The notes under the pieces are model-generated. The model did no database searches and was not told the DNA's origin. It saw nothing but the letters and a program-made list of their open reading frames with translations. The translations under genes were made by a program, and so were the position numbers. Below are positions 21,535 to 47,118 of a DNA stretch of 64,000 nucleotides, one piece after another. This DNA comes from an uncultured Alphaproteobacteria bacterium (lineage in GTDB: Bacteria; Pseudomonadota; Alphaproteobacteria; Rs-D84). The first letter of the stretch is position 1. Every line of letters starts with the position of its first letter. The DNA lies in NCBI GenBank assembly GCA_944389465.1, contig CALXML010000004.1:14578-78577 (forward strand), written 5' to 3'.

Positions 21535-21712
21535 TGCACTGGACGACTACCAATGCGGGGCGTGATAACCTCTGAAGTTGTCGGAAACGACATAAAACAT
21601 TTACTCCAACTAAGCGTTGCAGGTTGGAGGGTCGTGATATATATGAATAAACGACGCTATTACTTCAATAGTTATCAACCTCCAACCGCCATTAGTCAGG
21701 CGGCGTTTTTAT
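21535..21712 (+). ncRNA. C4/CI-antisense-like structured leader, copy 1
   Basis: Closing stem GGTTGGAGG/CCTCCAACC, two inner hairpins, bipartite complementarity to an upstream target, overlapping terminator; aligns with copy 2. Confidence 0.75.
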
Positions 21713-21744
21713 TTGCATTTTTTGCAAAAAATAGGGGAAATACT

Positions 21745-22335
21745 ATGAAGAAAAAATTATGTTTAATTAGCTTATTTTTGTGTGATGCGGCATTTGCGGT
21801 GGGGACACCTACACTCTATTACTGTAATTGTGGGCCTGGTTATGAAAGTACTAATAGCGTTTATAATCGTTTGGATGCGTGTAAAAGTTCAAGTGATACA
21901 GAATGTATAGTGTCATCTTCGTCAACTGGATTTGTGTACAGAATGTCATATCAGGAAGCAGAACCAGCCTGTGGTGTGTGTCAGTGTTATTCAACTGTAA
22001 ATGACTGGGAGTATAGCAGCTATTGTACGGTAAAAAGGACTAATATCAGAGTTTATGATAGCGGTGAGTTTTCAACAACTTGCAATTATGAATTTGAAAC
22101 AGATGTTGGGTGTGATGACGGATGTTATATGGAGTGGTATGAACCTCAGAATCTTGATATTGGGTGTACAAGCTGTCCCAGAGTTTCTGATGATTGGACA
22201 GATTGTTATGGAAGAAGCAAAATAGGAAATAAACAAGGAATAGATGGATGCTGGCTTCCTTATTGTGGTAATATGGACGATGAAACTGGTACTTGGGTTA
22301 TTACGGAAGACGAAAAATGCTTTTATCAACCGTAA
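21745..22335 (+). CDS. Secreted Cys-rich hypothetical protein (196 aa)
   Basis: AGGGGA RBS; MKKK signal peptide ending AFA; many Cys; C-terminal DETGTW...CFY. Confidence 0.85.
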   Translation: MKKKLCLISLFLCDAAFAVGTPTLYYCNCGPGYESTNSVYNRLDACKSSSDTECIVSSSSTGFVYRMSYQEAEPACGVCQCYSTVNDWEYSSYCTVKRTNIRVYDSGEFSTTCNYEFETDVGCDDGCYMEWYEPQNLDIGCTSCPRVSDDWTDCYGRSKIGNKQGIDGCWLPYCGNMDDETGTWVITEDEKCFYQP

Positions 22336-22344
22336 TAATATAAC

Positions 22345-22809
22345 TTATTGATTTCTTTTCTTTCTAAATTCGTCCAATGAAACAACGCGACCGTTGTCTG
22401 GTACTGTGTCTGGTTTTTCGTCCAATGGCAATTCCATATCATTATCCGCCGCCGGAACATTTTTTGGATGAAAAGATAACATAAAATCAACAGATGGGTC
22501 TTTAAATTCCACCAATGCTGAAAAAGGCACACGAATAAAGAACGGGCGACCATCAAAAGTTAATTGAACACCAAATTCTTTGTCCGATACGTGCAGATTA
22601 TTATAAGAATATTGTAATACAATCGTCATAATATCAGGATAACGAATGCGCAAAAAGTCAGGCAAAACAACACCAGCCGCACGTGTTTTAAATGTAATAT
22701 AAAAATGTGTACCGTCCCCCAACCCGTTAAATTGTGCGTGAATCAGTGCCTCTCTGACCACAGATTTCAGGGCATTGTCTAATAAAGTTTGATAATCTAT
22801 TTTACTCAT
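22345..22809 (-). CDS. sspB: Alphaproteobacterial ClpXP adaptor, SspB-like
   Basis: HFYITFKT..GV, YP..MTIVLQ, F.DPSV.F, VVSLDEFRKK tail. Confidence 0.88.
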   Translation of the reverse strand: MSKIDYQTLLDNALKSVVREALIHAQFNGLGDGTHFYITFKTRAAGVVLPDFLRIRYPDIMTIVLQYSYNNLHVSDKEFGVQLTFDGRPFFIRVPFSALVEFKDPSVDFMLSFHPKNVPAADNDMELPLDEKPDTVPDNGRVVSLDEFRKKRNQ

Positions 22810-23893
22810 TTTTTTGTCCTGACCACAGTATATTATTTATTTCACCATCGTTGCAAGTAACAAATACTGCATTCGGAACATCTGCAAAAACATTTGCATC
22901 CAACCCTGTTGCCCAAACCTGTGCGTCGGCCGCCCCCAAATCGGCAAATAATTTGGCGCGTGCATTTGCATCCAAATGTGCGGCCGCTTCGTCCAGTAAT
23001 ATCAGTGGGCGACGGTTTGTTTTTGTATGCATTAATTTTGCATGTGCCAAAATTAAATTTAATAATACTGTTTTTTGTTGGCCGGTGCTGGTTAATGCCG
23101 CTGGTAAATTTAACATTTTATTAAATACACCAAAATCAGATTTATGCGGACCGTCAACAATCATTTTGTCTGCAATTAATTCACGTGCACTGTGCAAATA
23201 TTCTGTATATTGACGTTCTGCTGCTGTGGCCCCTGTGCCATCAATCAGCATTTGTTCAACCATTCCCGAAACAGTTACCGCGCAATCAGATAAAAAATAG
23301 TTTAATTCGCCCGCATACATAATTCGTGCATACGCCACCGCCACCGCCAGACCAGATATTTGTGCATCCAGCGCATCCAACCAACGCGCGTCATTTCCGT
23401 TTTTCAGTGCAAATGCGCGTTCAGACATTAATTTAGACAATCTGGCCACGCGTCCCGAATGTGTGGCATCAAAACTGCCGGTTAATCTGTCAAAGAAAGC
23501 GCGCCTGTCAGATGCTGCATCAACAAATAATCTATCCTCTCGTGGGGTTAACCATATTGTGCGCAATTGCGTGGATAAATCAGCCAATGTTGCATTGTCA
23601 CCATCAATTCGCGCACGACGATTTGAATCGCCGGCTGTAAAATAAACAGATATTTCCGTATCATCATTTAACAGTGCAAACACAGAAAAACCGCCATCGC
23701 CACCGAAGCGTGCAATATCTGTCATTGGTGCGCCACGCAAACCACGGTCCCCCCCCAGCATTGATACCGCTTCCAATACGGCGGTTTTGCCCGCCCCGTT
23801 TGGGCCGGTTATTATAACATTGCGCTGGCCGTGGGTTTGAATGCGGCATAATTTATGATTGCGAAAATTAGTCAATGTTACAGAATTAATCAT
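22802..23893 (-). CDS. recF: DNA replication and repair protein RecF
   Basis: LTNFRN, GPNGAGKT, RRAFFDR, STGQQK, LLDEAAAHLD; true start MINSV at 23893. Confidence 0.93.
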   Translation of the reverse strand: MINSVTLTNFRNHKLCRIQTHGQRNVIITGPNGAGKTAVLEAVSMLGGDRGLRGAPMTDIARFGGDGGFSVFALLNDDTEISVYFTAGDSNRRARIDGDNATLADLSTQLRTIWLTPREDRLFVDAASDRRAFFDRLTGSFDATHSGRVARLSKLMSERAFALKNGNDARWLDALDAQISGLAVAVAYARIMYAGELNYFLSDCAVTVSGMVEQMLIDGTGATAAERQYTEYLHSARELIADKMIVDGPHKSDFGVFNKMLNLPAALTSTGQQKTVLLNLILAHAKLMHTKTNRRPLILLDEAAAHLDANARAKLFADLGAADAQVWATGLDANVFADVPNAVFVTCNDGEINNILWSGQKNE

Positions 23894-23966
23894 AGCCAGA
23901 TAATACACCAAAACAAAAAAAATACAAATATCAAAAAAACACCCAATAAACTTGAGTGTTTTATTT

Positions 23967-24040
23967 TGGAGGCCTGAGTCGGAATCGAACCGGCATACAA
24001 GGATTTGCAGTCCTCTGCATAACCACTCTGCCATCAGGCC
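23967..24040 (-). tRNA. tRNA-Cys(GCA)
   Basis: GGCCTGA...TCAGGCC-TCCA; anticodon loop CTGCAAA; U73 discriminator. Confidence 0.96.
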
Positions 24041-24152
24041 AATCTGAAATATGTGTAACACATACTAGGCAAAAAAAATTTGTAATTCAACTGAAAAATT
24101 GTATTATATGTATAAATATGTTTTTCAGAATTTATTAAGAGAGAGTGTTTTT

Positions 24153-25496
24153 ATGAAAAAACTGTTATTTTGTATGTTGTGCCTGATACCGGCACAACTG
24201 ATGGCGGCCACGGATGAAAATTGCCGCACCATGACAACCGTGCCGGATGGTGAATTAACCCTGCAACAGGTTATTGAATTGGGATTGTGCCGTAATCCTG
24301 AAACGGCATCTGCATATTTATCATTGGAATCAGCGCGTTTTAATAAAAATGCGGGCTATGGTCAATATTTGCCCAGTGTCAGTGTTTCTGGTTCGGCCAG
24401 TTTGCCATACAGAAACAGGGAATTTGACGATTGGTCATATGGTGCATCAATTTCTGCATCTTATTTAATATTTGATTTTGGCAAACGTTTATCTGATGTT
24501 AACAGATTAATAGATACATGGCGCGCCACGGGTTTTGATTACAGTGAATCTGTGCAAAATTATGTATATGGTATAATTGGTGCATATTATGCATTGTTAA
24601 ACGCTGATGCAGACGTATTTACCGCAAACGCCGTTATGCAGGTTTCCAAAACGGCCAAGGATACCGCCGATAAAAAATTTAATGCCGGTGCAGTGGCCAA
24701 GGCCGATGTTCTGAAGGCGGACGTTACATTGGCCAGCAGTATTTTGGATTTGGAACGTGCAAAAAACAACCGCGAAATTGCCAAGGGTACATTACTGGCC
24801 AAATTGTCTTTCCCCGCGGACCAAGATATTCAGATTGCAGATATGTCATCTGATTTTGGTTCCGAATCAGAAAACAAAAGTATTGATGAATTAATTGAAA
24901 TTGCGCGTGAACGTCGCCCTGACCTGTTGCGTGCATCTGCAAACAAGGATGCTGCATGGCACAGCAGAAACAGCGCGTTTTTATCAAATCTGCCATCTAT
25001 TTCGGCCAGTGGCAGCCTGTCTTGGAATAATGTTCCATCAGATGTATATAACGCCGGCCAAGATGAATGGAGTGGCAGTATCGGTATTCGTGCGTCTATG
25101 CCAATATTTGCGGGCTTTTCAAATATGTACAGTGTTCGTTCTGCACAGGCCAGTTATGAACGTGCCAAGGAACAGGAACGTATGACTGTTGATAACGCAA
25201 TGTTGGATGTGTTCAGTGCATATCAGAACTATAAAACTGCACAAACTGTATTAAAACAAACAGAAACGTTATTGGCATCGGCCAAGGAAACAGAAAGTGT
25301 TACCGCCGGTATGTACAAGGTTGGCAAAGCAACCATGCTGGATTGGCAACAGGCATTGGCTGATTTGGCCGATGCTCACAAACAAAATAATGCGGCTAAA
25401 TACGATTTGTTTACCAAACGTGCGGCATTGGCATTATCAATTGGCGATATAAAAGAGGGATTAATCAAGGACGAGGGAGAATCAACAAATGAATAA
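24153..25496 (+). CDS. TolC-family outer membrane protein
   Basis: Signal peptide, two OEP repeats (YLPSVS, IFDFG, PIFAG); operon with adaptor and ABC genes. Confidence 0.88.
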   Translation: MKKLLFCMLCLIPAQLMAATDENCRTMTTVPDGELTLQQVIELGLCRNPETASAYLSLESARFNKNAGYGQYLPSVSVSGSASLPYRNREFDDWSYGASISASYLIFDFGKRLSDVNRLIDTWRATGFDYSESVQNYVYGIIGAYYALLNADADVFTANAVMQVSKTAKDTADKKFNAGAVAKADVLKADVTLASSILDLERAKNNREIAKGTLLAKLSFPADQDIQIADMSSDFGSESENKSIDELIEIARERRPDLLRASANKDAAWHSRNSAFLSNLPSISASGSLSWNNVPSDVYNAGQDEWSGSIGIRASMPIFAGFSNMYSVRSAQASYERAKEQERMTVDNAMLDVFSAYQNYKTAQTVLKQTETLLASAKETESVTAGMYKVGKATMLDWQQALADLADAHKQNNAAKYDLFTKRAALALSIGDIKEGLIKDEGESTNE

Positions 25497-26670
25497 GCAA
25501 CAACAACAGCCAAAACAACATAAATTTTGGAATTGGGTGCGCCGTCGCAAATGGTGGATTATTTTGTTCATCATTGTTGCTGGTGGATTTGTGTACTTTA
25601 TGGGTGGTGATGATAATCAGGGTTCTGGTTTTGCAACTGCAACTATTTCGCGTGGCAATCTGCGTCAGGTTGTAACTGCAACCGGTGAAATTCAACCACT
25701 GAATACAATTAACGTTGGTTCACAGGTCAGTGGCACAATAGAGGCAATATACGTTGATTATAATTCCAAGGTTAAAAAGGGCGATGTTTTGCTGAAAATT
25801 GAACCGTCTGTTTTACAGGCGTCTGTTGACGAAGCGTTGGCATCATTGGTCAGTGCAGAATCACAACGTAATTATGCCAAAAGTGAATATGAACGTAACA
25901 AAACATTGTATGATGCAGGATATATTCCTTTGGCGGATTTGGAACAATCACAAACAACATATGAACAGGCCGAACAATCAGTTAATCGTATGCAATCGCA
26001 ATACGACCGCGCGGTAACAAATCTGGGGTATGCAACGATTACATCACCTGTTGATGGTACGGTTATTTCACGTCAGGTTGACGTTGGACAAACAGTTGCG
26101 GCATCATTCCAAACACCGGACTTGTTTGAAATTGCCGAAGATTTATCAAAAATGCAAATTGAAACCGCCGTGTCCGAGGCTGACATCGGTATGATTACCG
26201 AGGGTCAATCAGTCACATTTACTGTTGATGCATATCCAACACAAACATTTGAAGGCTTTGTTCGTCAGGTACGTTTATCACCAACAATTACATCAAACGT
26301 TGTTGTGTACACCGTTGTAATTGATGTTGATAACAGTGATTTACGTTTGAAACCGGGGATGACTGCTTTTGTAACTATTCTGATTTCTGAACGTAATGAT
26401 GTATGGAAAGTGCAAAATTCAGCATTAATTTTGCGTTCTTTTGACGGAATTGTTGAAAATGCTGGTGATGCAACGCCTGCCGACCATTTGGCAATCCAGC
26501 GTGTTGTTGATGGCAAACAAACAATTGTTTTAATCCCATATGAAAAGGGCTTGGTTACGGCAACTGAAACAGAAATTATTTCTGATGAAATTCAGGATGG
26601 TGACCGTGTAATCTTTGGACGATATGGTTTGGCATCGTCCGGTTCGGCGCGTATGGGGCCACCGCGTTAA
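25489..26670 (+). CDS. MacA-like periplasmic adaptor
   Basis: VGSQVSG, ITSPVDGTV, GQTVAASFQTP, LKPGMTA. Confidence 0.9.
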   Translation: MNKQQQQPKQHKFWNWVRRRKWWIILFIIVAGGFVYFMGGDDNQGSGFATATISRGNLRQVVTATGEIQPLNTINVGSQVSGTIEAIYVDYNSKVKKGDVLLKIEPSVLQASVDEALASLVSAESQRNYAKSEYERNKTLYDAGYIPLADLEQSQTTYEQAEQSVNRMQSQYDRAVTNLGYATITSPVDGTVISRQVDVGQTVAASFQTPDLFEIAEDLSKMQIETAVSEADIGMITEGQSVTFTVDAYPTQTFEGFVRQVRLSPTITSNVVVYTVVIDVDNSDLRLKPGMTAFVTILISERNDVWKVQNSALILRSFDGIVENAGDATPADHLAIQRVVDGKQTIVLIPYEKGLVTATETEIISDEIQDGDRVIFGRYGLASSGSARMGPPR

Positions 26671-26673
26671 TGT

Positions 26674-26707
26674 AAATAAACAGCCGGCATTTGCCGGCTG
26701 TTTATTT
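26674..26707 (+). terminator. Terminator (CCGGCATTT family)
   Basis: AAATAAACAGCCGGC-ATTT-GCCGGCTGTTTATTT. Confidence 0.8.
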
Positions 26708-26781
26708 TTTACTATTAAAAAATTATGAAAACTTCATCATAAATGATATAATTATCCAAAAAATATCAGAGAGAATGTTTA

Positions 26782-27525
26782 ATGAAAAAAAATCAGAAAC
26801 AAGACAATGATGTCAAAATTATTTCTATGAAAAAAATCTGTAAAAGTTTTCCACTGGAAATGGGTGGTGAACAACAGGTTTTGTTTGATATCACATTTGA
26901 CGTAAAACAGGGTGAATTTGTATCTATTATGGGCCCATCGGGCAGTGGTAAATCCACGTGTATGAATATCATTGGTGCGCTGGATACACCGACCAGTGGC
27001 ACATACGAATTATACGGTCGTGATGTCACACATTTAACGTCTGATGAATTGGCGGTGGTTCGTAACGAATATATCGGATTTGTATTTCAGCAATTTAATT
27101 TATTGGCCAAACGCAGCGTTCTGGACAATGTTATGTTGCCATTAATGTATCGTGGATTGCCCATGGATGAACGTGTGCGTCGTGCACGTGAAATGTTACA
27201 GCGCGTCGGTTTGGAAAAATTTGAAACATATTTACCAACACAACTGTCCGGTGGTATGAAACAGCGTGTTGCAATTGCGCGTGCATTGGCGGGTGACCCT
27301 AAATTAATTCTGGCGGACGAACCCACCGGTGCATTGGACAGTAAAATGGGTAATGATATTTTAACTTTTTTTAAAAAATTAAATCAGGAAATGGGCATTA
27401 CGATTGTTATGATTACCCATGAATTTGAAATCGCCCAATATTCAAACCGTTTAATTCACATATACGATGGCCGTATTACATATGACGGTCGTGTACCACG
27501 TGATGAACGCGTATTACAGAAATAA
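26782..27525 (+). CDS. MacB/LolD-type ABC ATP-binding protein
   Basis: [32 protein letters not shown]. Confidence 0.93.
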
Positions 27526-27542
27526 TAAAAACAGGTAAAAAA

Positions 27543-28760
27543 ATGACTTTTAACGATATATTAAAAGAATCTTGGTTATCCATCAGCGGAAATAAAATTC
27601 GTTCATTCTTGACCGTTTTGGGTATTGTTATTGGTGTTATGGCGGTTGTGATAATGGTTGCTGTTGGTGAAACGGTGTCCAAACAAATTAATGACCAATT
27701 TTCATCACTGGGAACAAATACAATCACAATACGTGCCGGCGCGGCGCAAAGTGCGGGTGTTCGCACCGGCAGCAGACAAACCCTGACCATGGATGATGCT
27801 GAATTTATCGGCCAATTACCCGATGTTGCGGCGTTCAGTCCGGTTCAAAATGCGTCTGCACAGGTTATTTATGGTAATCAGAACTGGGCAACATCAATGG
27901 TTGGTGCATACCCCGGATATGAACAGGTTCAAAATCTGGAAATGAAATACGGAACCTTTTTTAATCAATCAGCGGTGCGCAATGGTTCTACATATGCGGT
28001 TATTGGGCCACAAACCGCCGAAGAATTAAATATGCCTGAAAATCCAGTTGGTGAAATAATCCGTGTTCAAAATATGCCTTTTACAATTATTGGTGTGACC
28101 AAGGAACGTGGTGATTCCACCATGGGCAGTCAGGACGATATGATAATTATTCCTGTTACCACGCTGAAAAAGCGTCTGCAGGGCAGTCGTTTTCCAAATT
28201 CAGTCAGTATGGTTACACTGAAATTATACGAAGGTGCAGATAACGCATTGGTCATAGAACAAATAACCGCCCTGCTGCGTGACCGGCATGATTTGGCCGA
28301 TGACGAGGCCGATGATTTCCAAATTATGGATATGAAACAGGTTATGGAGGCCATGGACAGTGTCACCGGTTATATGACAATGCTGTTGGTTGCAATTGCG
28401 GCTGTATCATTGTTGGTGGGGTCAATTGGTATTATGAATATGATGCTGGTATCTGTTGCAGAACGTACCCGTGAAATAGGTATCCGCAAGGCCATCGGGG
28501 CACGGGAACGTCATATAATAACCCAATTCTTGGCCGAGGCTATTTTAATATCCTTTATGGGTTCTATGGCCGGATTGATATTGGGTGTGGGTCTGTCACA
28601 GGGAATTGGCCGATTCGTTATGGGATATGATGTTCCTTTCAGTGCATGGCCGGTTGTTGTGTCTGTGACGGTTGCGGTTGTGGTTGGTTTGGCATCCGGT
28701 GTAATGCCCGCAATGAAGGCTGCAAAATTAAACCCAATTGACAGTTTGCGTTATGAATAA
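27543..28760 (+). CDS. MacB/FtsX-type ABC permease
   Basis: RSFLTVLGIVIGV, GIMNMMLVSV.ERTREIGIRKAIGA, LRYE. Confidence 0.93.
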   Translation: MTFNDILKESWLSISGNKIRSFLTVLGIVIGVMAVVIMVAVGETVSKQINDQFSSLGTNTITIRAGAAQSAGVRTGSRQTLTMDDAEFIGQLPDVAAFSPVQNASAQVIYGNQNWATSMVGAYPGYEQVQNLEMKYGTFFNQSAVRNGSTYAVIGPQTAEELNMPENPVGEIIRVQNMPFTIIGVTKERGDSTMGSQDDMIIIPVTTLKKRLQGSRFPNSVSMVTLKLYEGADNALVIEQITALLRDRHDLADDEADDFQIMDMKQVMEAMDSVTGYMTMLLVAIAAVSLLVGSIGIMNMMLVSVAERTREIGIRKAIGARERHIITQFLAEAILISFMGSMAGLILGVGLSQGIGRFVMGYDVPFSAWPVVVSVTVAVVVGLASGVMPAMKAAKLNPIDSLRYE

Positions 28761-28774
28761 CTGGCATTAAATAT

Positions 28775-28803
28775 AAAAAACACCGGCATTTGCCGGTGTT
28801 TTT
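28775..28803 (+). terminator. Terminator (CCGGCATTT family)
   Basis: AAAAACACCGGC-ATTT-GCCGGTGTTTTT. Confidence 0.8.
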
Positions 28804-28927
28804 GTGTCATATATAAATTACCAATTCCGCCCCACCCCACCCCGATAATTTATATAACAATGCACAGAAATAACCATATGCACTTTTATATAATTGACAA
28901 AATAAAATTCTGTAATACACTGGCGAT

Positions 28928-29923
28928 ATGCTTACACGTATCATTATAAAATATTTTGATTTAATTGATAAAGTTCTGCCGGTTGGCGGGATAGTGCGTC
29001 GTTTTCCATATGCGATGGTATTTAAAACAACCAATTGGTGTTGGTATAAATGTGCGCACTGTTGTGAAAATGCCGGCCCAGACCAACCACACGAATACAT
29101 TCCATCTGATATAATTAAATATTATATACAACAGGGTATAAACGACCCCACCTTTTCGCAAGAGGTTGTCTTTACCGGTGGCGAAATAATGTCTGCGTAT
29201 AAATTTGGTGATGAAAATTACGTACGAAATTTGCTGGATTTTTGCGGTCAAAATAACATAGGTACAGATATTAAAACAAATGCTGGTTGGGTAAAAACGT
29301 CTTTTGCGCCACGTATATATGATGATTTGGCGGATATTATTTCAAACAATGCACCATACCAGTTTCAAATATCATTGTCTTTGGACAGGTTTCATCCAAA
29401 CAGTTTGGAAAACTGTGCACAGTTTATAAAGCAACTGTCACGACGGCCAAATATGCATACTGCGGTGCATTTATCCTCTTTTGGGGATGATGCGCATATG
29501 TATCCAGAATTATTAAAAACACTGATGCAGTTGGGCGTGCGTATTAACAGCGGGTTTGTGCAAAAAGGTAACAAAGTGACAGAGGTTGATATTGCCGGAA
29601 AACAATTGGTATTAAAACCTTCTGCTGATGCGGTATTATTCAGCAGTGGCCGCGCAAAAAATTTACCGAACGCCGCCCAGAACAGTTATCCACAATTTAA
29701 GTTTTTAACGCGTGATGCGCGTGTTTTAATGGCATTTGATTCATTTGGTCGGGTGACATTGGGGGAAAATGCGGATAAAAAAATATCTGCACAGTGGCGC
29801 GCAAGTAATGGCACGCCCCGCCCATTAAACCACATTCAATATGATTTAATAAAAAATGCACAGTGGCATGAAATACGCGCGCGCATATTTGACCATTTCA
29901 GCCCATTTGCAAAACAAAAATAA
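28928..29923 (+). CDS. Radical SAM-family protein of unknown function
   Basis: CWYKCAHC (CxxxCxxC), FTGGE, TNAGW, SLD.FH. Confidence 0.8.
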   Translation: MLTRIIIKYFDLIDKVLPVGGIVRRFPYAMVFKTTNWCWYKCAHCCENAGPDQPHEYIPSDIIKYYIQQGINDPTFSQEVVFTGGEIMSAYKFGDENYVRNLLDFCGQNNIGTDIKTNAGWVKTSFAPRIYDDLADIISNNAPYQFQISLSLDRFHPNSLENCAQFIKQLSRRPNMHTAVHLSSFGDDAHMYPELLKTLMQLGVRINSGFVQKGNKVTEVDIAGKQLVLKPSADAVLFSSGRAKNLPNAAQNSYPQFKFLTRDARVLMAFDSFGRVTLGENADKKISAQWRASNGTPRPLNHIQYDLIKNAQWHEIRARIFDHFSPFAKQK

Positions 29924-29926
29924 AAT

Positions 29927-29955
29927 AAAAAACACCGGCATTTGCCGGCGTTTTT
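29927..29955. terminator. Bidirectional terminator (CCGGCATTT family)
   Basis: AAAAACACCGGC-ATTT-GCCGGCGTTTTT between convergent genes. Confidence 0.8.
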
Positions 29956-30820
29956 ATGCTAAATTCATTCGGTGTTGCATTTCAATTAAAACAGGCACAT
30001 CAACGTTTAATGCCGCTGCGCGACGAATTAATCCATTTAATGCAAATATGCCCTCTACTGTGCCGGCGGGCGCATCCCCACGGGCAATGGCCATACCGCC
30101 CGCAAAATTACGACTGGTTGCGGATGTTGCAGACAGGAACAAATCCCCTATGCCGCATAAATCCAGAAAAGTTTGCATTTGTGCACCACATTTCAGACCG
30201 ATTTGCATAACTTCGTTCCATGCGCGGGTAAATATCAATGCGCGTTCATTTTCACCAGCCGCAGCAATGGAATTATATCCGCATATTAATGCAACAGCAT
30301 TTTTTCCAACCCCACAAATTTCCGTACCAACAACATCATTGCTGGGGTTTATGTGCAATAAATGTAACGCCGCCCTGCCCGCGTCAATTGCGCGTGCCGT
30401 GCCCGCCAGTGTTGAACCCGTTGGAATACCACGGGCAACTTCGGCTGCAAATTGTGGACCGGACAGTACGCCAAAATCGGTGACATTTGGTAACTCGTCG
30501 GCCATTATTTCTGACATAAAATTACCGGTTGTGTTTTCTGCACCCTTGGTACAAATGATAATAGGCTGGTTTTTGTATACATCCTTGGCCTTGTGCAAAG
30601 TTTCGCGAAAGAACGCCGCCGGTGTTACAATTAACCATGTTTCGCATTCCCCGATATTTGCCATATCATTGGTCAATGTAATGTTATCTGGCATTTGTAC
30701 GCCATCAAAATCCTTGTATCCACCATCATAAGACCATAAAACAACATCTGCGCCACCACGTGCGCAAATAATAGCCAGCGCAGTTCCCCACGCGCCTGCA
30801 CCAATTACACCAATTTTCAT
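29954..30820 (-). CDS. gpsA: NAD(P)H-dependent glycerol-3-phosphate dehydrogenase
   Basis: GAGAWGTALA, TKG.E, SGP.FA.E, KN..A, GIGDL, SRN. Confidence 0.93.
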   Translation of the reverse strand: MKIGVIGAGAWGTALAIICARGGADVVLWSYDGGYKDFDGVQMPDNITLTNDMANIGECETWLIVTPAAFFRETLHKAKDVYKNQPIIICTKGAENTTGNFMSEIMADELPNVTDFGVLSGPQFAAEVARGIPTGSTLAGTARAIDAGRAALHLLHINPSNDVVGTEICGVGKNAVALICGYNSIAAAGENERALIFTRAWNEVMQIGLKCGAQMQTFLDLCGIGDLFLSATSATSRNFAGGMAIARGDAPAGTVEGIFALNGLIRRAAALNVDVPVLIEMQHRMNLA

Positions 30821-32433
30821 TTTAAATCCCTTAATTTTTTACGAACCTGTGGGACGATAACCAATCCATCATCAGATAATTCAATTGCACGTGTGTACGC
30901 ATCGCGTGCCAGATTTTCGTCACCAGATGCAACATATAAATCACCCAGTTGTTCAAACAGTGATGAACATGTTGCAGAAACCTCGCCGACACGTTCCAAT
31001 ACATCCAATGCCGGTTCAATTCCTTCGCGTACAGTAATAACGCGGCCCAACGTATCCCATGCCATTATGCTGGTTGGGTCTTGCTTTACCAATGTCATTG
31101 CATAATCATATGCGTTTTCAATTTCACGCCCCTGTGCGGCCCAAATTTTGGCCTGTAAAGCCATAATTTCACCATCCAGCGGCATTATTTGTGATGCTTC
31201 GTGTAAATCGTTTTGTGCATCTTTTAAATCGTCAAACATATAATATATGTGCGCCCTGCTCTTCATAAAAAAAGCGCGCCCATATTCAGTTATGTTTTCA
31301 TCATCCAATGCCATATTTACAGTACGCAATGCTGCGCGACGGTTACCGTTTTGGACATTATATGCAATTAATTTATTTACCGCCGGCACAAACAGTGGAT
31401 TTTGTTTTACTGCCTTTTCCAGTGCCCCGATATCATTATTACTTTCTGCGATTTTCATCACTGCAAACAGATAAAAAGGACTGTCGGATGATATTTTTGA
31501 AAAATATTTTTCAAAATCGCCATGATTATTATAAAAGAATTGCCCCAGATAATAATTAATTGCATCACTGTTTTTGCCGAAATCAGGACTGCTGACCTGT
31601 GCAAAACGTAATAATAACATTGCCAAATCAGAATACATCATTATTTGTGTGTGTGATACGGTTTGCACCAAACTGAATGCCAATTCATTTTGAATGCCGG
31701 AAAACATTTCCCAATCAGGAACATCCGCATAATCCAGCATATACATTCCGCCCGCACGTGCGGTAAAATCATCGTGCAGTTTTTGTGCCGCATCATTCAG
31801 ATTATTATGTTTGTAAAAAGACATTACATACAAATAATCGCTGATATTCATAAAATCAACGCGTACCTTGGCAAAATATTCGGCGGCTTTATCAATATCA
31901 TCAGTTTCAGCATAAATTTGGCCGGTGATAAAGTTTTGCCATGCCTCGTTCGTGGGTAAATCCTTTATAAATTTAATGGCGTCTTTTTCTTTGCCAATTG
32001 CCACAGATGACCATATGCGCAACGGTGCGGCCAATGCAGATTCATCCTTTTTATGGCGTTGATACAAATCATCCCATTTGCCCTGTTGTGCCAAATAAGC
32101 ATCATAAATCAGGCGTGATGCGGTTGTTTTTTCCTCTTCCAGTACTATGACGCCATCTGGCATACGGCCACTTAAAAAATCGGCTAAAAATTTAGTTGAT
32201 TGTACAATTGAATAATCAACATCAGTTAATAAATTGGCGTATTTGGACGCACTGTCAAAATCATTAACGTAAATAGCATGTTGTGCAGCCAAAAAGTTAC
32301 CGTATTGAGTATCTGGATAAATATGTGTTTTTGACGTGTCGGCAATATGGCCGTGATACCATACAGCACCACCAATCACGGCAAGAACTGCAACCAATGC
32401 GACACCAATAAATAATGTTTGTGCTTTTTTCAT
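30817..32433 (-). CDS. Membrane-anchored TPR-repeat protein
   Basis: N-terminal TM; YG.FLAA; C-terminal TPRs (DTLG, EQLGDLY...A..AY.RA). Confidence 0.75.
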   Translation of the reverse strand: MKKAQTLFIGVALVAVLAVIGGAVWYHGHIADTSKTHIYPDTQYGNFLAAQHAIYVNDFDSASKYANLLTDVDYSIVQSTKFLADFLSGRMPDGVIVLEEEKTTASRLIYDAYLAQQGKWDDLYQRHKKDESALAAPLRIWSSVAIGKEKDAIKFIKDLPTNEAWQNFITGQIYAETDDIDKAAEYFAKVRVDFMNISDYLYVMSFYKHNNLNDAAQKLHDDFTARAGGMYMLDYADVPDWEMFSGIQNELAFSLVQTVSHTQIMMYSDLAMLLLRFAQVSSPDFGKNSDAINYYLGQFFYNNHGDFEKYFSKISSDSPFYLFAVMKIAESNNDIGALEKAVKQNPLFVPAVNKLIAYNVQNGNRRAALRTVNMALDDENITEYGRAFFMKSRAHIYYMFDDLKDAQNDLHEASQIMPLDGEIMALQAKIWAAQGREIENAYDYAMTLVKQDPTSIMAWDTLGRVITVREGIEPALDVLERVGEVSATCSSLFEQLGDLYVASGDENLARDAYTRAIELSDDGLVIVPQVRKKLRDLK

Positions 32434-32459
32434 ACCAAAAATATGCTACAATAATATTT

Positions 32460-36338: not shown

Positions 36339-36416
36339 GAAAATACTCCCTTGAGTTTCTGTTACTCGTGTTCTATTTTAGAATAAAAGGTTTGAAAAAT
36401 CAAGGGAAAAGGCTTT

Positions 36417-37214: not shown

Positions 37215-37251
37215 ATAATAATTTTACGTAAGTTATTAAAAGGAGTATACA

Positions 37252-37806
37252 ATTAAACCGCAATTTAACCGTGATAATCGTCGGGATACGGGACCGCGCA
37301 TAAACAATCGGATTTTTGCAAAATCTGTTCAGGTAATTGATGAAAACGGCCAAAATTTGGGCGTAATGCCAACATCTAATGCGTTACAGATGGCGGCGGA
37401 CGCGGGATTGGATTTGGTGGAAATCAGTTCAAATGGCACAACGCCAATTGCCAAAATAATGGATTATGGTAAATATAAATACGAACAGAAAAAACGTGCG
37501 TCCGAGGCCCGAAAAAATCAAAAAACAGTTGAAATGAAAGAGGTTTGGGTTAAACCGTTCATAGAAGAAAATGACCTGAACATCAAAATGAAGAAAGTGT
37601 TTGAATTTCTGGGCGACGGTAACAAGGTAAAGGTTGCAGTTATGACCCGTGGTTCAAAAAAAGTTCTGGCACGTGGCAAGGATGCAGTCCCAGAATTATT
37701 TGCCCGCATTATGGAAATTGTTGGCGACCGTGGGACATTGGAATCTAAATCCAAGCCAGACGAACGAACAAAATCAATAATAATTGCACCAACCCGTGCA
37801 AAATAA
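37252..37806 (+). CDS. infC: Translation initiation factor IF-3 (ATT start)
   Basis: PRINNRI, GLDLVEI, KIMDYGKYKYE; AGGAG RBS at 37241-37245 with in-frame ATT at 37252. Confidence 0.95.
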   Translation: MKPQFNRDNRRDTGPRINNRIFAKSVQVIDENGQNLGVMPTSNALQMAADAGLDLVEISSNGTTPIAKIMDYGKYKYEQKKRASEARKNQKTVEMKEVWVKPFIEENDLNIKMKKVFEFLGDGNKVKVAVMTRGSKKVLARGKDAVPELFARIMEIVGDRGTLESKSKPDERTKSIIIAPTRAK

Positions 37807-37861
37807 TAACTGGGGCGCTTGCCCCGTTTTTGTTACTGGTAATTCGTGATTTTTTTATGCA

Positions 37862-37947
37862 TGTGTCGCTCGGGTACTGCGTACCCTGTGCGTATTCTCG
37901 GTATTTGTTCAAACCGCGCTGTCGCTTGTTTTCACATACTCGGATTC
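37862..37947 (-). repeat. Structured dispersed repeat, homologous to 46621-46700
   Basis: Shared blocks GAATCCGAGTAT, CAAGCGAC(A)GCGC, GAG.ATAC. Confidence 0.7.
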
Positions 37948-38051
37948 ATTGCGAGCAAAGCGAAGCAATCCAGTTAATATAAACTTATTTGCGTCAGCAA
38001 ATACATTACTATAGATTGCCACGGTCGGGCTGCGCCCTCCCTCGCAATGAC
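37946..38051. repeat. REP/RPE-like palindromic element
   Basis: TCATTGCGAG..GAAGCAATC ... GATTGCCAC...CTCGCAATGA terminal inverted repeats. Confidence 0.8.
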
Positions 38052-38079
38052 AAGGGGGGGGGGACACAGTATGACGTGC

Positions 38080-38358
38080 TTATTCCAGTGGACAGGCGAC
38101 AGTATATTCGTATGTTCCAGATTCGTCAATATATTGGGTGTTTGCCGGTGCATACATAATGCATGAACCGGCGGGTGACGCCACCAAACAACTGTCCGCC
38201 GTACCGGTGGATGTATATCCGGTGGGACACGAACCGTCCGCAATTGTCATATATTCTTCTTCTATCGCGACATAACCCGATGGGCACGATGTGGACGGTG
38301 CGATGGCAAATGCACCAACCGGCGTAATTACCATAATTAAAACCGATATTCGTTTCAT
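38080..38358 (-). CDS. Small secreted Cys-rich protein (92 aa)
   Basis: Signal peptide ending AFA; two SCP(S/T)GY repeats; C-terminal DESGTYEY...C; G7 RBS. Confidence 0.82.
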   Translation of the reverse strand: MKRISVLIMVITPVGAFAIAPSTSCPSGYVAIEEEYMTIADGSCPTGYTSTGTADSCLVASPAGSCIMYAPANTQYIDESGTYEYTVACPLE

Positions 38359-38369
38359 ATCCCCCCCGT

Positions 38370-38789
38370 TTAGTCAGATAAATTACTAAACATTGAAGCG
38401 CGTATAGATGCTTCATCTCTCAAATTATACGCACATGTAGAAGCACAGTTTGTGGCACAGGAAGCAGCTGTGCTGTATGATCTAGAAAATACCCATTGTG
38501 AAACCGCCGGACTAATCATTCTGCACCAGCAATATTTATTGTTATCCAATGTATAAGATATTTCTACATAATAATTAGTTGTTGCACCCATTGAACCACC
38601 ATTTTGCGAGCCACAAAATGCAATCCCTTCAATAGACGTACCATCACATGTTGCAGAAAAGTCAGAATCCCGCCCAAAAAAACTAGAACACGTTGTTGAT
38701 GGTGTTAAGGCTACATATTTTGTAACCGCCGTGGCGGGTGGGATTGTGGCCGCGCAAATCAGGCCGGTGATTAATAAATATTTTTTCAT
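38370..38789 (-). CDS. Secreted Cys-rich protein (139 aa)
   Basis: GGAG RBS; MKKY signal peptide; CWC...WVF...CxxxCxxxC. Confidence 0.85.
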   Translation of the reverse strand: MKKYLLITGLICAATIPPATAVTKYVALTPSTTCSSFFGRDSDFSATCDGTSIEGIAFCGSQNGGSMGATTNYYVEISYTLDNNKYCWCRMISPAVSQWVFSRSYSTAASCATNCASTCAYNLRDEASIRASMFSNLSD

Positions 38790-38821
38790 ATTCTTATCTC
38801 CATTTTCTTTTGTTTGTGAAT

Positions 38822-38991
38822 AAAGAAAACCACCGGAATTTTCAGGTGGTTGGAGTTTAAGAACAATCACTATAATTGCGTGGTTTATTCAGTATATTCA
38901 CCACACTCCAACCATAATGGTTGGATTTGTTTTACGTCGGTGTCCGACGATAGTGAAGGGTTCTTAAGCCCAATATGGGAATACCCCATAT
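38822..38991 (-). ncRNA. C4/CI-antisense-like structured leader, copy 2
   Basis: Closing stem GGTTGGAGT/ACTCCAACC; compensatory changes relative to copy 1 in the inner stems, target boxes and terminator; TTGATT-16 bp-TATTAT promoter upstream. Confidence 0.78.
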
Positions 38992-39153
38992 CAATTTCAT
39001 AATATCACAGGTGACGGTTAAATCAACAGCAAAAGTTATCGGTCTGTGACCATACCCAGCACGAATGCCGGTAACGAGAAATCAGCAACTATTTTTGTTT
39101 GCCTTTTGTGGATTATTTTTGTATCGTTTCTGTATAATTTTGAAGGGTATATT

Positions 39154-39357
39154 ATGGACGAAAAAAAATTATCTTTTGAAGAGGCTTATAAACAACTGAC
39201 AGAACTGGTAAAAAAAATGGAATCCGGCGAATTGCCGTTGGCTGATTCTGTGGCTGCATATGAACAGGGAATTAAGTTAAAGGCATACTGTGAACAGTTA
39301 TTGAAAGAGGCCGAATTAAAAATTGAAACATTAAAAGTTACCCCGCAACAAGCATAA
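39154..39357 (+). CDS. xseB: Exodeoxyribonuclease VII small subunit
   Basis: SFEEA...L..LV..ME.G.L.L..S...YE.G..L...C...L..AE. Confidence 0.93.
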   Translation: MDEKKLSFEEAYKQLTELVKKMESGELPLADSVAAYEQGIKLKAYCEQLLKEAELKIETLKVTPQQA

Positions 39358-39367
39358 TGGATTTATC

Positions 39368-41938
39368 GTGGCTGAAAAAAGCAAATTAACCCCAGTTATG
39401 CAACAATACGTTGATATGAAGGGCGAAAACCCTGACGCATTGTTGATGTTTCGTTTGGGTGATTTTTACGAGGCTTTTTTTGAAGACGCCAAAACAATCA
39501 GTCGCACTTTGGGTTTGGTTCTGACCCAGCGTGGCACTGATGGCGACGGCGAAAATATTCCAATGTGCGGGATTCCGTGGCATGCGGCGGATAATTATTT
39601 TGGTCGTTTGGTGCGCGCGGGTTTTCGTGTTGCATTGGTGGAACAAATGGAAACGCCTGCACAGGCCAAGGCCCGCGGGCACAAGTTCATAGACCGAAAA
39701 ATCATTCGTGTTTTAACCCCCGGAACATTAACAGATGAAAATTTATTAACGCCAAAAAATTCTAATTTTTTAATTGCTGTTATTTTAACGGATGACAAGC
39801 AATTTGAAATTGCGGGTTGTGATATTTCCACCGGTGAATTTTTTGTTGGGCGCACGGCTGATATATTGGATGATTTGGTACGCATCAATCCGGCCGAGGT
39901 TATTTATCCAGAACCCTTGGCTGAAAATGAAACAATTATGCATCTGCGCGATGTGTTCAAAACAACGCCGGTGTATGAAAAATTGTATCATCGTGCGGAT
40001 ATTGATAAAATAGTGGGCAGTGTTTTTGGCGGTGCTGTTGCCACCGGTGATAATATTGCCATAACGTATGACAGTGCAATTAAGTTATTGGCCGGATATT
40101 TATTTAATACCCAGCGTGGCGCGTCAATAACATTCCGCGCGCCTTATTTATATAAGTCTGGGCGTCAGTTATTGATTGATTCCGCCACATGGAAAAGTTT
40201 GGAAATAGATGCGCCAATGAATGACGGCGGCCTGTGTTTGGTTGATGTGCTGGATAATACTAAAACAGCGGCGGGCGCACGTAAATTACGTTCTTATTTG
40301 CGCACATTATCGGCGGACGTAAATGAAATACATCGCCGGCAATCGCACATTGGGCATATGGTTTTGAACAGGGATGTCGCGGGCGCGGTTGAAAATATGT
40401 TATCGTCTGTGCCTGATGTTGGGCGCAGTTTATCACGTCTGTTGTCTGGCCGTGGTACACCACGTGATATGCGCCACGTAACAGATTTTATGATTGAATT
40501 GCCAAATGCAAAAATGTTGGGCGCACGTCTGGATGATGAAATGGCCGCGCGTTTTGCGAACATAAATACGCATGATGAATTGGCATTAAAATTAAATTCG
40601 GCATTAAATGATGAATTGCCAACTTTTTTCCGTGATGGCAATGTTGTACGCGCCGGTTTTGATGCATCGTTGGATAATATGCGTGGTTTGGCACACGGGG
40701 CCAAGGAAACAATTGCCAGTATGCAATCTGAATATGCCGCGTCCACCGGCATACATAACCTGAAAATAAAATATAATAATATTTTGGGCTATTTCATAGA
40801 AGTTCCATCCGCACGCGCAGATGTTTTAATGCAACCGGAATCGGGCTTTATACATCGTCAAACAATGTCCGGTAATATGCGTTTTACAACCGCGCGGTTA
40901 ATAGATTTGGATAATGATGTGCGGTCGGCCGCTGAAAAATCTGCCGCCATAGAGGCTGAAATAATATCCAACCTGATTGATGAAATTCGCATCGCGTCCG
41001 ATGATTTATTGGCCACGGCGGATTTGCTGGCGGATTTAGACACTTGGTATTCTTTGGCCGTTGTGGCGGATAAATATTCATGGGTGCGGCCTGAAATTAC
41101 CGATGATGTTGCGTTTGATGTTGTTGGTGGCCGACATCCGGTGATTGATTTCGTACTGCGTCGCACGGGTGACAATTTTGTTAAAAATGATTGTAATTTA
41201 AACGTTAAATCGGTTGCATTATTAACAGGCCCAAATATGGCTGGTAAGTCAACATATTTGCGTCAAAATGCATTATTGGTTGTGTTGGCGCATCTGGGGT
41301 CGTTTGTGCCGGCAGTGCGTGCAACAATTGGCATTTGTGACCAGTTGTTCAGTCGCGTTGGTGCATCTGATAACTTGGCGGCGGGCCAGTCAACCTTTAT
41401 GGTGGAAATGAGTGAAACCGCCAATATCTTGCGCCGTGCGACAAAGCAATCTTTTATAATTTTTGATGAAATAGGTCGCGGCACATCAACATATGATGGT
41501 ATGGCCATTGCGCAGGCTGTTTTGGAATACGTTGACGAACTGCGTGCACGAACTTTATTTGCCACGCATTATCATGAATTAACCGCACTGGTTGGTGATG
41601 ACGCGGGACAGTTGCAAAATGTGTCCTGTTTGACCATTGATGTGCGCGAACATAATAACGAAATAATATTTATGCATAAAATAATTTCAGGTGTTGCAAA
41701 TCGTTCATATGGGATTCAGGTTGCAAAAATGGCGGGTATGCCGGCATCTGTTGTTGCCCGTGCACAACAGGTTCTGGATGGACTGGAATCACACAATCAC
41801 ACACTGTGTGACACCGGTAACGATGCCCAAACATCAATTGCGCAACAGAATGCACCCGAACGAAAAACATCGGATAAGTCGCAGCCCCGTGTTGCAGAAC
41901 CACAAAAACACAGTGTTCAATTGAACCTGTTTGGATAA
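39368..41938 (+). CDS. mutS: DNA mismatch repair protein MutS
   Basis: TPVMQQY, GDFYE, TGPNMAGKSTYLRQ, STFMVEM, DEIGRGTST, FATHY. Confidence 0.97.
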   Translation: MAEKSKLTPVMQQYVDMKGENPDALLMFRLGDFYEAFFEDAKTISRTLGLVLTQRGTDGDGENIPMCGIPWHAADNYFGRLVRAGFRVALVEQMETPAQAKARGHKFIDRKIIRVLTPGTLTDENLLTPKNSNFLIAVILTDDKQFEIAGCDISTGEFFVGRTADILDDLVRINPAEVIYPEPLAENETIMHLRDVFKTTPVYEKLYHRADIDKIVGSVFGGAVATGDNIAITYDSAIKLLAGYLFNTQRGASITFRAPYLYKSGRQLLIDSATWKSLEIDAPMNDGGLCLVDVLDNTKTAAGARKLRSYLRTLSADVNEIHRRQSHIGHMVLNRDVAGAVENMLSSVPDVGRSLSRLLSGRGTPRDMRHVTDFMIELPNAKMLGARLDDEMAARFANINTHDELALKLNSALNDELPTFFRDGNVVRAGFDASLDNMRGLAHGAKETIASMQSEYAASTGIHNLKIKYNNILGYFIEVPSARADVLMQPESGFIHRQTMSGNMRFTTARLIDLDNDVRSAAEKSAAIEAEIISNLIDEIRIASDDLLATADLLADLDTWYSLAVVADKYSWVRPEITDDVAFDVVGGRHPVIDFVLRRTGDNFVKNDCNLNVKSVALLTGPNMAGKSTYLRQNALLVVLAHLGSFVPAVRATIGICDQLFSRVGASDNLAAGQSTFMVEMSETANILRRATKQSFIIFDEIGRGTSTYDGMAIAQAVLEYVDELRARTLFATHYHELTALVGDDAGQLQNVSCLTIDVREHNNEIIFMHKIISGVANRSYGIQVAKMAGMPASVVARAQQVLDGLESHNHTLCDTGNDAQTSIAQQNAPERKTSDKSQPRVAEPQKHSVQLNLFG

Positions 41939-46309: not shown

Positions 46310-46369
46310 GGTACAGAATAAAAAACTGGACAAGTGGGAAAAAATGGTTTATTATACTGCCACTGTTTC

Positions 46370-46446
46370 GGATGTTTAGCTCAGTTGATTAGAGCATCTC
46401 GTTTACACCGAGAGGGTCGGGGGTTTGAGTCCCTCAACATCCACCA
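46370..46446 (+). tRNA. tRNA-Val(TAC)
   Basis: GGATGTT...AACATCC-ACCA; anticodon arm TCTCG-TTTACAC-CGAGA. Confidence 0.95.
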
Positions 46447-46731
46447 CAAAACATAATCGCCCAATGGGCGATTTTATTTTGTGCATGGGGATGTGGGACG
46501 AAAACCCCCGCGGGGTGTTTGACAATGAGTCAGCGAGCATTTTAATAAAATGCGAGTGCAGTACGCATCAGCGTACGTGAACGAATGCCCCGCAGCCGGC
46601 GATATTAACGCCGTGCGAGGGAATCCGAGTATATAAGGTCAAGCGACGCGCAGACCGAATAACTATTGAGGATACCCGCAGCCGGCGGTATTAACGCCGT
46701 GCGAGGGAATCCCTCAACATCCACCACAAAA
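46430..46731. mobile_element. Non-coding element of about 280 bp flanked by a duplicated tRNA-Val 3' end
   Basis: TCCCTCAACATCCACCACAAAA at 46430-46451 and 46710-46731; internal 38-bp direct repeats. Confidence 0.6.
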
Positions 46732-46769
46732 TTTCGTTAACGAACGCAGTGAGTTTAAGAAATTTTAGT

Positions 46770-46807
46770 GCCACACGAAGCCTTGCGCGAAGTGTGGCTT
46801 TTTTTTT
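46770..46807. repeat. REP-like palindrome or terminator
   Basis: GCCACAC-GAAGCCTTGCGCGAA-GTGTGGC plus T-run; related to 17462-17488. Confidence 0.7.
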
Positions 46808-46869
46808 ACCACCCAACGGCAAAGATTTTCACACGCCCCCGCGGGGTGTGGTTTTTTATTTCATATTCC

Positions 46870-46898
46870 TTGCCTTATTTTTATTTATTGTTTATGAT
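46870..46898 (+). promoter_or_regulatory. Sigma70 promoter of leader copy 3 and the glycosyltransferase
   Basis: TTGCCT-17 bp-TATGAT. Confidence 0.7.
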
Positions 46899-46904
46899 TG
46901 GTTT

Positions 46905-47118
46905 GAATCCACAGGGATGTGGCTTCGGGTCTTTCAAAACCCATAACACGCGGTGCGATATGCATCGTAATCCATATAAGCAGATGATGCATTTTGCATC
47001 GTATGCCCGACGTCAGGTGTCGGGTGTCTGATGTTATACAACAGGTTTTACCAAAAGCATCGGGGTCATCGTGTTATGATTTTGAAAACGCCCGACCGCC
47101 ATTTACTGTGGCGGTTTA
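46905..47118 (+). ncRNA. C4/CI-antisense-like structured leader, copy 3 (divergent sequence, same architecture)
   Basis: Closing stem GTCGGGTGT/ACGCCCGAC, two inner hairpins, TTTCAAAA+CATAACACG target, overlapping terminator. Confidence 0.7.

Follow-up and report, generated by a model that had tools for sequence, protein, structure and literature searches.

C4-Type RNAs and Their Relatives

The immunity RNAs CI of phage P4 and CA of N15 are located in the leader of the operon that they control, downstream of a complementary target, and they affect transcription termination. In the case of P4, CI RNA is reported to cause premature termination via an upstream and a downstream target, and acts as a repressor. 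In the phage P1 record, a promoter is followed by the boxes a1 and b1, a 66-nt spacer and the 77-nt C4 RNA, and then by a second pair of boxes, a2 and b2, before icd. Here, we describe RNA leaders (hereafter units) of this general kind, three of which lie in a 64,000-nt stretch of DNA, the window, corresponding to positions 14578-78577 of contig C4 (a contig label, distinct from the RNA) in the genome assembly of an uncultured alphaproteobacterium, a Candidatus Enterousia, of the GTDB order Rs-D84. The RNA family to which they belong is genuine, widely distributed and so far without annotation; it is a variant form of the C4 and sRNA-Xcc1 RNAs that makes up part of gene leaders and has diversified into dozens of private codes.

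Several other relatives have been described. As far as the available portion of the survey by Weinberg et al. goes (2010, PMC2864571), 'c4 antisense RNA' and 'c4-a1b1' are listed for Proteobacteria and phages. In Acinetobacter baumannii, the accessible part of the published account reports a Group 1 of 21 chromosomal C4-like small RNAs (sRNAs), which possess a variable recognition loop and are processed at GGW (PMC5320573). The sRNA-Xcc1 of Xanthomonas campestris is presented, in the available excerpt, as a free 88-nt sRNA whose target and function are unknown (PMC2996969). No description of the leaders reported below was found in literature searches on these RNAs and on the host, and the supplement of Weinberg et al. 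may bear on their novelty. With regard to the host, the genus Enterousia, which belongs to the order Rs-D84, comprises uncultured gut bacteria with genomes below about 1 Mb, and the available text on it considers them probably partner-dependent (PMC12306168).

Two Alternative Folds of a Common Leader

The source assembly comprises 953,858 bp in 22 contigs and is rated 99% complete. Initial simple searches showed that relatives of the window leaders are numerous elsewhere in this genome, and since an alignment of the three window copies alone with MAFFT misplaced the third one, genome-wide copies were used instead. A seed alignment of 22 of them served to build a covariance model, R1, which includes the long-range structure. 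Covariation was then analysed in a model-made alignment of 45 units of the main type (type 1), of which 34 come from the source genome and 11 from other genomes.

The units share one order of elements. The 5' part consists of a promoter-like site, a 5' hairpin, a GGG(G) box, the target half a1 (7-8 nt), a short C-rich gap and the target half b1 (6-10 nt). In the middle part, one or more spacer hairpins are often found, followed by the anti-stem box X and by a core of 68-77 nt, formed by the closing stem P1 and the hairpins P2 and P3. The P2 loop is nearly invariant, while the effector sequences are carried by the P3 loop (b') and then by the 3' junction (a'). In the 3' part, a GC stem-loop and its T-run are followed by a ribosome-binding site and, 0-36 nt beyond the unit, by a start codon. 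The first two C of the terminator stem double as the last two bases of stem P1.

Two mutually exclusive folds are predicted from this arrangement, and both are supported by covariation. In the closed fold, a1 is joined to a' and b1 to b', the G box binds the beginning of the 3' strand of P1, and X binds the 5' strand of P1, which leaves the terminator free. Standard pairs occupy 97.2% of the cells of this fold in the alignment, 32 of its 43 pairs have changed on both sides, and none of 500 shuffles scored as high. For the open fold, made of P1, P2 and P3, the corresponding values are 96.8% and 21 of 29 pairs. Covariation between X and its partner X' is illustrated by columns 145:163 (AU in 33 units and UA in 12) and 146:162 (AU in 29, GC in 12), and that of the closing stem by columns 163:235 (UA in 33, AU in 7), so that X and the two strands of P1 change together. 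Columns 239 and 240 can pair either with columns 160 and 159 in the closing stem, or with columns 263 and 262 in the terminator, whose helix (helix 8 of the family) is paired in 98.7% of the alignment. A G-U pair is kept in the G box of 44 of the 45 units, which argues for pairing in RNA rather than in DNA. The covariation sought in a larger alignment is thus present for both folds. When the cores are folded in isolation, the minimum free energy (MFE) structure contains the closing stem in all 45 cases and the complete set of three stems in 33. As in a transcription attenuator, the helices exclude each other and one of them is an intrinsic terminator placed directly ahead of a gene.

In several units (for instance loci L004, L014, L016 and L017), the T-run of the terminator is able to pair with an A-run preceding the ribosome-binding site. 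By eye, the resulting small AU hairpin is common to this gene subfamily.

Family Size and Distribution

The family had first been seen as three copies; covariance-model scans raised this number to 45 units in the source genome. Type 1 accounts for 34 of them, including the first two window copies, with R1 scores of 75 to 174 bits, the next best match in the 953,858 bp reaching 36 bits. The 11 type-2 units comprise eight matches to the sRNA-Xcc1 model RF02221, the third window copy and two units found via weak R1 matches; a matching upstream code was read by eye in 10 of these 11. A type-2 unit at C1:150082-150171 on the minus strand, which has kept the address (G box, a1 and b1) and the 5' part of the core and has lost the 3' closing strand, is probably a decayed copy. 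Elsewhere in the genome, two units stand back to back about 95 bp apart (C3:58680-58869 on the minus strand and 58965-59134 on the plus strand), a secreted-protein gene lying on one side and a gene for an XRE-type regulator on the other.

Matches to R1 were obtained in 37 of the 41 genomes of a draw of relatives that includes the source genome, and in all 24 other genomes of the genus. Across the order Rs-D84, where the search was run at E ≤ 1e-5 with at most 17 candidates scored per genome, such that copy numbers there are lower bounds, 137 of 151 genomes gave matches. Of 151 genomes drawn from the whole class, 13 matched, or 11 of 149 once the source genome and one congener are set aside; the same parts were seen in the two of those 11 out-of-genus genomes that were examined. 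A second genome, in 5 contigs (G013), holds 46 units.

Relatives also contain head-to-tail arrays of three to seven complete units spaced by about 240 nt (L133, at G113:C2:66400-69400, as well as L134, L135, L186 and L201). Each array unit has its own promoter-like site and its own terminator, and no open reading frame (ORF) lies in between. The array that was examined ends at an XRE-type gene, and its five units represent five combinations of three a codes and three b codes, each matching itself (by eye).

Private Codes

Codes vary from copy to copy and show self-specificity, as had been read from the three window leaders. For 32 of the 33 source-genome units compared (one box-less unit being left out), the target pairs best with the effector of the same unit, with mean duplex energies of -14.8 kcal/mol for cognate and -4.3 kcal/mol for non-cognate combinations. 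In G013, the cognate effector ranks first in 36 of the 46 units, and two adjacent units of this genome share one code.

Possible further targets were searched for on both strands of the whole genome as exact two-part sites, consisting of a (7 nt), a gap of 1-9 nt and b, with two units lacking an exact b dropped. For 30 of the 32 remaining units, the hits were confined to the site of the unit itself and, trivially, to the complement of its effector; one unit gave one extra hit, and another, whose b has 5 nt, gave six. On the basis of this exact search, the units do not possess a second, downstream target of the a2/b2 type of phage P1. Tolerating a mismatch in each half yielded nothing but noise, and exact matching was used instead.

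Groups of paralogs have an a code in common, and no b code occurs twice. For the 11 pairs of nearest units, with a mean backbone identity of 93%, the b columns are only 39% identical, as against 68% for loops and spacers, and thus approach the 35% observed between distant pairs. This rapid divergence, together with the recombination of half-codes in the arrays, fits a selection acting on recognition. The code of the third window unit is kept at four orthologous loci of other genomes, one of them showing a compensatory double change in b1/b'.

One type-1 unit, at C12:10357-10532 (L124), has no recognisable a1/b1 and adopts the open fold by default. It lies ahead of a gene for a secreted, Cys-rich protein, and may be an example of a unit that is 'unlocked' in nature.

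Comparison with Known Systems

The likeness to C4-type RNAs proposed in the sequence-only reading holds for the fold of the core and for the promoter-a1-b1-core layout, but does not extend to the Rfam C4 model. The latter (RF01695, gathering score 45 bits) gave no match in the genome at E ≤ 10, while phage P1, taken as a positive control, scored 68.8 bits. As in phage P1, a1 (7 nt) is separated by a short gap from b1 (8 nt in phage P1), and a spacer of about 66-80 nt leads to a three-stem RNA of about 70-77 nt, with b' located in the loop of a hairpin and a' within the 3' junction. In contrast to phage P1, the units have no a2/b2 downstream over the ribosome-binding site, and they add the terminator overlapping the closing stem, the anti-stem box and the G box. 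Their MFE structure is consequently the closed one, whereas the phage P1 leader keeps the C4 fold. They also serve host genes instead of icd/ant, and are present in 45 copies with different codes. Compared with P4 CI, they have an upstream target only, and the folding models suggest antitermination. Their three-way exclusive pairing, which ends in an intrinsic terminator and in which all three strands covary, recalls classical attenuators; the input proposed here differs, as it would be an RNA with a matching two-part code and carried by the leader itself, instead of a ribosome, a tRNA, a protein or a metabolite.

The second relative, sRNA-Xcc1 (RF02221), resembles type 2. The third window copy and six further type-2 cores span all 87 positions of this model, with the same three stems and an AUACAA loop, even though none of the genome matches (21-49.6 bits) reaches its gathering score of 53. 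In permissive Rfam scans of the three window leaders, this hit on the third copy was the single credible match, and the type-1 copies did not match sRNA-Xcc1. Neither a cis address nor an attenuator is mentioned for sRNA-Xcc1 in the available portion of its description (PMC2996969). The Group 1 sRNAs of A. baumannii share the C4-like organisation, the variable recognition loop and the high number of chromosomal copies in one genome, but they match the Rfam C4 motif, unlike the present units, and the accessible part of the account describes for them no self-complementary address, no terminator overlap and no leader position (PMC5320573). The same text places the RNase P site of phage P1 C4 at the GGU that opens the closing stem. 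In the type-1 alignment, the closing stem likewise opens with GGU.

The Three Leaders of the Window

The three leaders are present where they had been reported, with all the parts listed for them and in one shared order, and the sequence confirms that each upstream two-part box is complementary to the loop plus junction of its own core. Duplex energies were compared with those of 2000 mononucleotide shuffles of each target; the observed value was matched by 3 of the 2000 shuffles for copy 1, and by 0/2000 for both copy 2 and copy 3. The z-scores of the leader folds against shuffles are -3.7, -7.5 and -6.0, respectively, and in the MFE fold of each leader, the upstream box is paired with the later loop plus junction.

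Unit 1 (type 1) extends from 21528 to 21720 on the plus strand, with an R1 score of 147.8 bits. It begins with a 5' hairpin (21536-21556) whose seven helix pairs all vary on both sides across the family. The address (21557-21578) comprises GGGG at 21557-21560, a1 at 21563-21569 and b1 at 21573-21578; in the MFE fold, its partners are b'/a' and the beginning of the 3' closing strand, through helices that covary in the family. Box X (21604-21610) pairs in the fold with the 5' strand of the closing stem, in line with the X:X' covariation. The C4-like core (21622-21687) has closing strands at 21622-21630 and 21679-21687, encloses the hairpins P2 and P3, and carries the effector as b' (21662-21667, in the P3 loop) and a' (21671-21677). 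The intrinsic terminator (21686-21710) consists of a stem at 21686-21703 and a T-run, the first two C of the stem being the last two bases of the closing stem. The terminator scan called it, and called neither of the other two. Consensus scanning for promoters located promoter-like sites shortly before copies 2 and 3, and none on the plus strand for copy 1. The gene that follows (21745-22335, plus strand) codes for a 196-residue Cys-rich protein with a signal-like N-terminus, for which neither a Pfam family nor an ESM Atlas hit was found.

Unit 2 (type 1) is read from the minus strand, between 38999 and 38813 (R1 score 170.6 bits), and is preceded by a promoter-like site at 39026-38999 from the consensus scan. 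The address covers 38950-38971, with GGG at 38971-38969, a1 at 38967-38960 and b1 at 38956-38950. Box X, assigned from the fold, lies at 38919-38925. The core (38848-38913) is closed by strands 38913-38905 and 38856-38848, with b' at 38873-38867 and a' at 38864-38857. A stem-loop at 38849-38830, also from the fold, forms with its T-run the terminator (38822-38849). Downstream, the minus-strand gene at 38370-38789 codes for a 139-residue secreted protein of the 'MKKHLLIAGL...SNLSD' paralog family; for this protein also, searches of Pfam families and of the ESM Atlas gave nothing.

Unit 3 (type 2), delimited by sequence and fold, occupies 46905-47125 on the plus strand, downstream of a promoter-like site at 46870-46898 found by the promoter scan. 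Its address (46927-46950) is made of GGG (46927-46929), a1 (46932-46939) and b1 (46942-46950). Box X (47005-47011) and the 5' closing strand together form a stable hairpin, about 10 bp long. In the core (47019-47104), the closing stem joins 47019-47026 to 47089-47096, with b' at 47070-47078 and a' at 47080-47087. This core aligns with positions 1-87 of sRNA-Xcc1 (RF02221) at 37.6 bits and an E-value of 3.2e-5, below the gathering score of 53. The stem-loop at 47096-47125 folds as a terminator would, with a poor T-run. The gene at 47143-48051, on the plus strand, codes for a family-2 glycosyltransferase (Pfam Glycos_transf_2, E 1.3e-28).

A Proposed Switch and Its Alternatives

We propose that each unit is an address-specific transcription attenuator that is switched on by its own RNA, a reading to which we give a probability of about 0.5. 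A sigma-70-type promoter would drive each leader. By default, the nascent leader would close on itself, the terminator would form and transcription would stop. A free C4-like RNA with the same code, derived from earlier transcripts of the unit and possibly released by RNase P cutting, would occupy a1/b1; the leader would then adopt the open fold, in which the closing stem takes two bases of the terminator, leading to read-through and expression of the gene. As the only RNA with a matching code is the unit's own core, the loop would be self-specific and positive, and could result in a threshold or bistable switch for each surface-protein or XRE-regulator gene. Since two bases at the bottom of the terminator stem are taken up by P1, the simplest reading of the structures equates closure with termination, and occupancy with read-through.

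This proposal was compared with ViennaRNA folding predictions for the 45 type-1 and 8 type-2 units. With the address free, the complete type-1 leader is closed and lacks P1 in 44 of 45 cases, and the terminator is formed in 43. For type-1 transcripts cut before the 3' arm of the terminator, the closed fold is obtained in 41 of 45 with the address free, and P1 in 41 of 45 with the address blocked, with a median advantage of 3.7 kcal/mol. The equivalent type-2 transcripts are closed in 8/8 cases with the address free, and form P1 in 5/8 with the address blocked. The structure and the specificity of the codes are well supported, while the direction of the switch is a model, held at about even odds.

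Several points weigh against this proposal. When the complete type-1 leader, terminator included, is folded at equilibrium with its address blocked, P1 appears in only 9 of 45 units, so that the model needs a kinetic window. Blocking of the address fails to flip copy 3 of the window, whose X hairpin is too strong for this, and two other type-2 units. As the overlap between closing stem and terminator is limited to two bases, the two structures might each form partially. Pair counts are based on an alignment that had been fitted to the closed fold, and the paralogs in it share their ancestry. In G013, 5 of the 46 units, all weak matches, show no matching code. The arrays of relatives show that a unit is able to stand as an RNA gene and not as a leader alone. 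As regards processing, the window contains the gene of the RNase P protein RnpA (19935-20279, minus strand; Pfam E 2.5e-18), but RNase P RNA was not detected with the bacterial class-A model at E ≤ 10 in this 99%-complete assembly; it may have escaped assembly or have diverged strongly. A search for Hfq domains in the source genome at E ≤ 0.001 gave none, and the unit RNAs, if they act by pairing, may work without Hfq.

Repression by premature termination, which the sequence-only reading had favoured, is opposed by the folding models, in which the cis-paired state leaves the terminator free. In such a negative self-control, as in P4 CI and phage P1 C4, the processed RNA would bind the nascent a1/b1 and provoke premature termination, thereby limiting expression to a brief period. 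This scheme has on its side the fact that the closest characterised relatives repress, which also speaks against a positive loop, and that the phage P1 record annotates the C4 targets with 'repression of icd ant translation'; the units, moreover, do have a target upstream and, behind the RNA, a terminator. It appears unlikely nonetheless, as blocking shifts the models towards the closing stem, the competitor of the terminator (41 of 45 type-1 and 5 of 8 type-2 units), and as the exact search revealed no downstream a2/b2 or seqC-like second target. An attenuator working purely in cis seems somewhat less improbable to us. The a and b helices would then be a structural clamp, the trigger being a protein bound to the P2 loop, temperature, transcription speed or a ligand, and the codes would differ only to keep 45 similar leaders from mis-pairing. 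The cis-closed state of unconstrained folds (44 of 45 type-1 and 8 of 8 type-2 units), the near invariance of the P2 loop and the lack of any exact target besides the unit's own would all agree with it. Conversely, the core shares the fold of known trans-acting RNAs, the b columns outpace the loops in close paralogs, and half-codes have been recombined in arrays. No riboswitch or leader model of Rfam matched at a credible score, and the idea that a known ligand-binding riboswitch would fit better was dropped on this ground.

The arrays of relatives, with their own promoter-like sites and terminators and no ORF between units, would be accommodated if the units were stand-alone sRNA genes, in which a1/b1 would be a masking 'pro-sequence' lost on maturation and the downstream gene would be expressed via leak-through. 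The targets would in this case be imperfect sites, or RNA of invading phages or plasmids or of a partner cell, and a parallel may be seen in the 21 chromosomal sRNAs of A. baumannii, which are processed from longer transcripts according to the available part of that study (PMC5320573). Such genes would hardly explain, however, why all 34 type-1 units of the source genome lie 0-36 nt before a co-directional start codon (one ORF being doubtful), and why the X and G boxes, which would have no role in a simple sRNA gene, covary; in addition, no other exact target was found for 30 of the 32 units searched. We therefore consider both this status of the units and the targets it would call for as quite doubtful. 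Finally, high copy number and strongly conserved blocks are also features of repeated DNA, such as miniature mobile elements or recombination sites, whose inverted repeats may merely resemble RNA structure. For the present units, this origin is highly improbable given the G-U pairs kept in the G box (44 of 45), where DNA would mismatch, the fixed orientation to the downstream gene, the compensatory changes over about 100 nt and the lack of transposase or phage genes nearby.

Should the self-activating attenuator prove correct, the units might, as a more tentative extension that we regard as possible rather than probable, constitute a bank of dozens of orthogonal address-coded RNA switches, working as self-sustaining ON/OFF memories, each for the gene of one surface protein or XRE regulator, and acquiring new addresses from half-code recombination of the kind seen in the arrays.

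Genes Served and Neighbourhood

The downstream genes had been read as coding for secreted Cys-rich proteins and a family-2 glycosyltransferase, in agreement with translations and Pfam. Over the source genome, all 34 type-1 units precede a co-directional ORF, one of which, with only 41 residues, is the doubtful case referred to above. Fifteen of these genes code for paralogs of a secreted protein of about 140 residues, nine for small XRE/Cro-type helix-turn-helix proteins and six for Cys-rich proteins of about 190-230 residues, with four others that include the doubtful ORF. A Pfam search of 32 downstream proteins yielded nine helix-turn-helix proteins, two family-2 glycosyltransferases, one weak Ephrin_rec_like match and 20 proteins without any family.

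At least 15 paralogs of the secreted protein of about 140 residues were recognised (for instance at L004:314-727, and at 38370-38789 on the minus strand of the window), with a Cys-Trp-Cys sequence, a 'SPAVS.WV' motif and a C-terminal 'SNLSD'; neither Pfam families nor ESM Atlas hits were found for them. Most of the Cys-rich secreted proteins of 190-230 residues (for instance L117, L118, L121, L124 and 21745-22335 in the window) end in a Gly/Thr/Tyr-rich motif with 'CYY', and one has the weak Ephrin_rec_like match (E 0.0047).

The absence of phage genes nearby, also noted from sequence inspection, was borne out, since none of the 25 flanking ORFs of the window has a phage Pfam family. These ORFs are housekeeping genes, including those for MutS, PNPase, ParAB, RecF and RnpA, or are unassigned by Pfam, and the phage or prophage immunity context that characterises C4 RNAs is therefore missing here. 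At gathering thresholds, Rfam recognises in the window four tRNAs only (11053-11125, 17489-17562, 23970-24040 on the minus strand and 46370-46443 on the plus strand), the last of which lies about 460 nt upstream of unit 3. No sequencing run recorded as RNA contains the stretch; four other runs, probably of DNA and available as contigs, cover 21000-40999 evenly and at low depth. Between 37675 and 38341, the summed depth in metagenome contigs is 4-10 times that of neighbouring bins, with many joints and loose ends; this segment may be repeated, or common to other organisms in those samples.

Biological Meaning

The family has been missed in the annotation of these common gut bacteria because it is absent from Rfam at curated thresholds. 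Its hundreds of codes in the order amount to a natural collection of RNA-RNA recognition pairs that are orthogonal to each other, and such a collection is directly useful for the design of synthetic riboregulators. If the proposed switch is true, this bacterium would be, to our knowledge and according to literature searches, the first known cell to use phage-type antisense RNA as a general, gene-by-gene control, with about one gene in 20 of a genome of about 900 genes having a private RNA code. It would also provide a ready function for the long-unexplained a1/b1 boxes of phage P1. For the organism itself, an uncultured gut symbiont with a reduced genome, the switch would open a way to vary the surface in a lineage regarded as an obligate partner of other cells, and the more tentative ON/OFF memories would be a form of phase variation based on RNA, with the DNA left unchanged.

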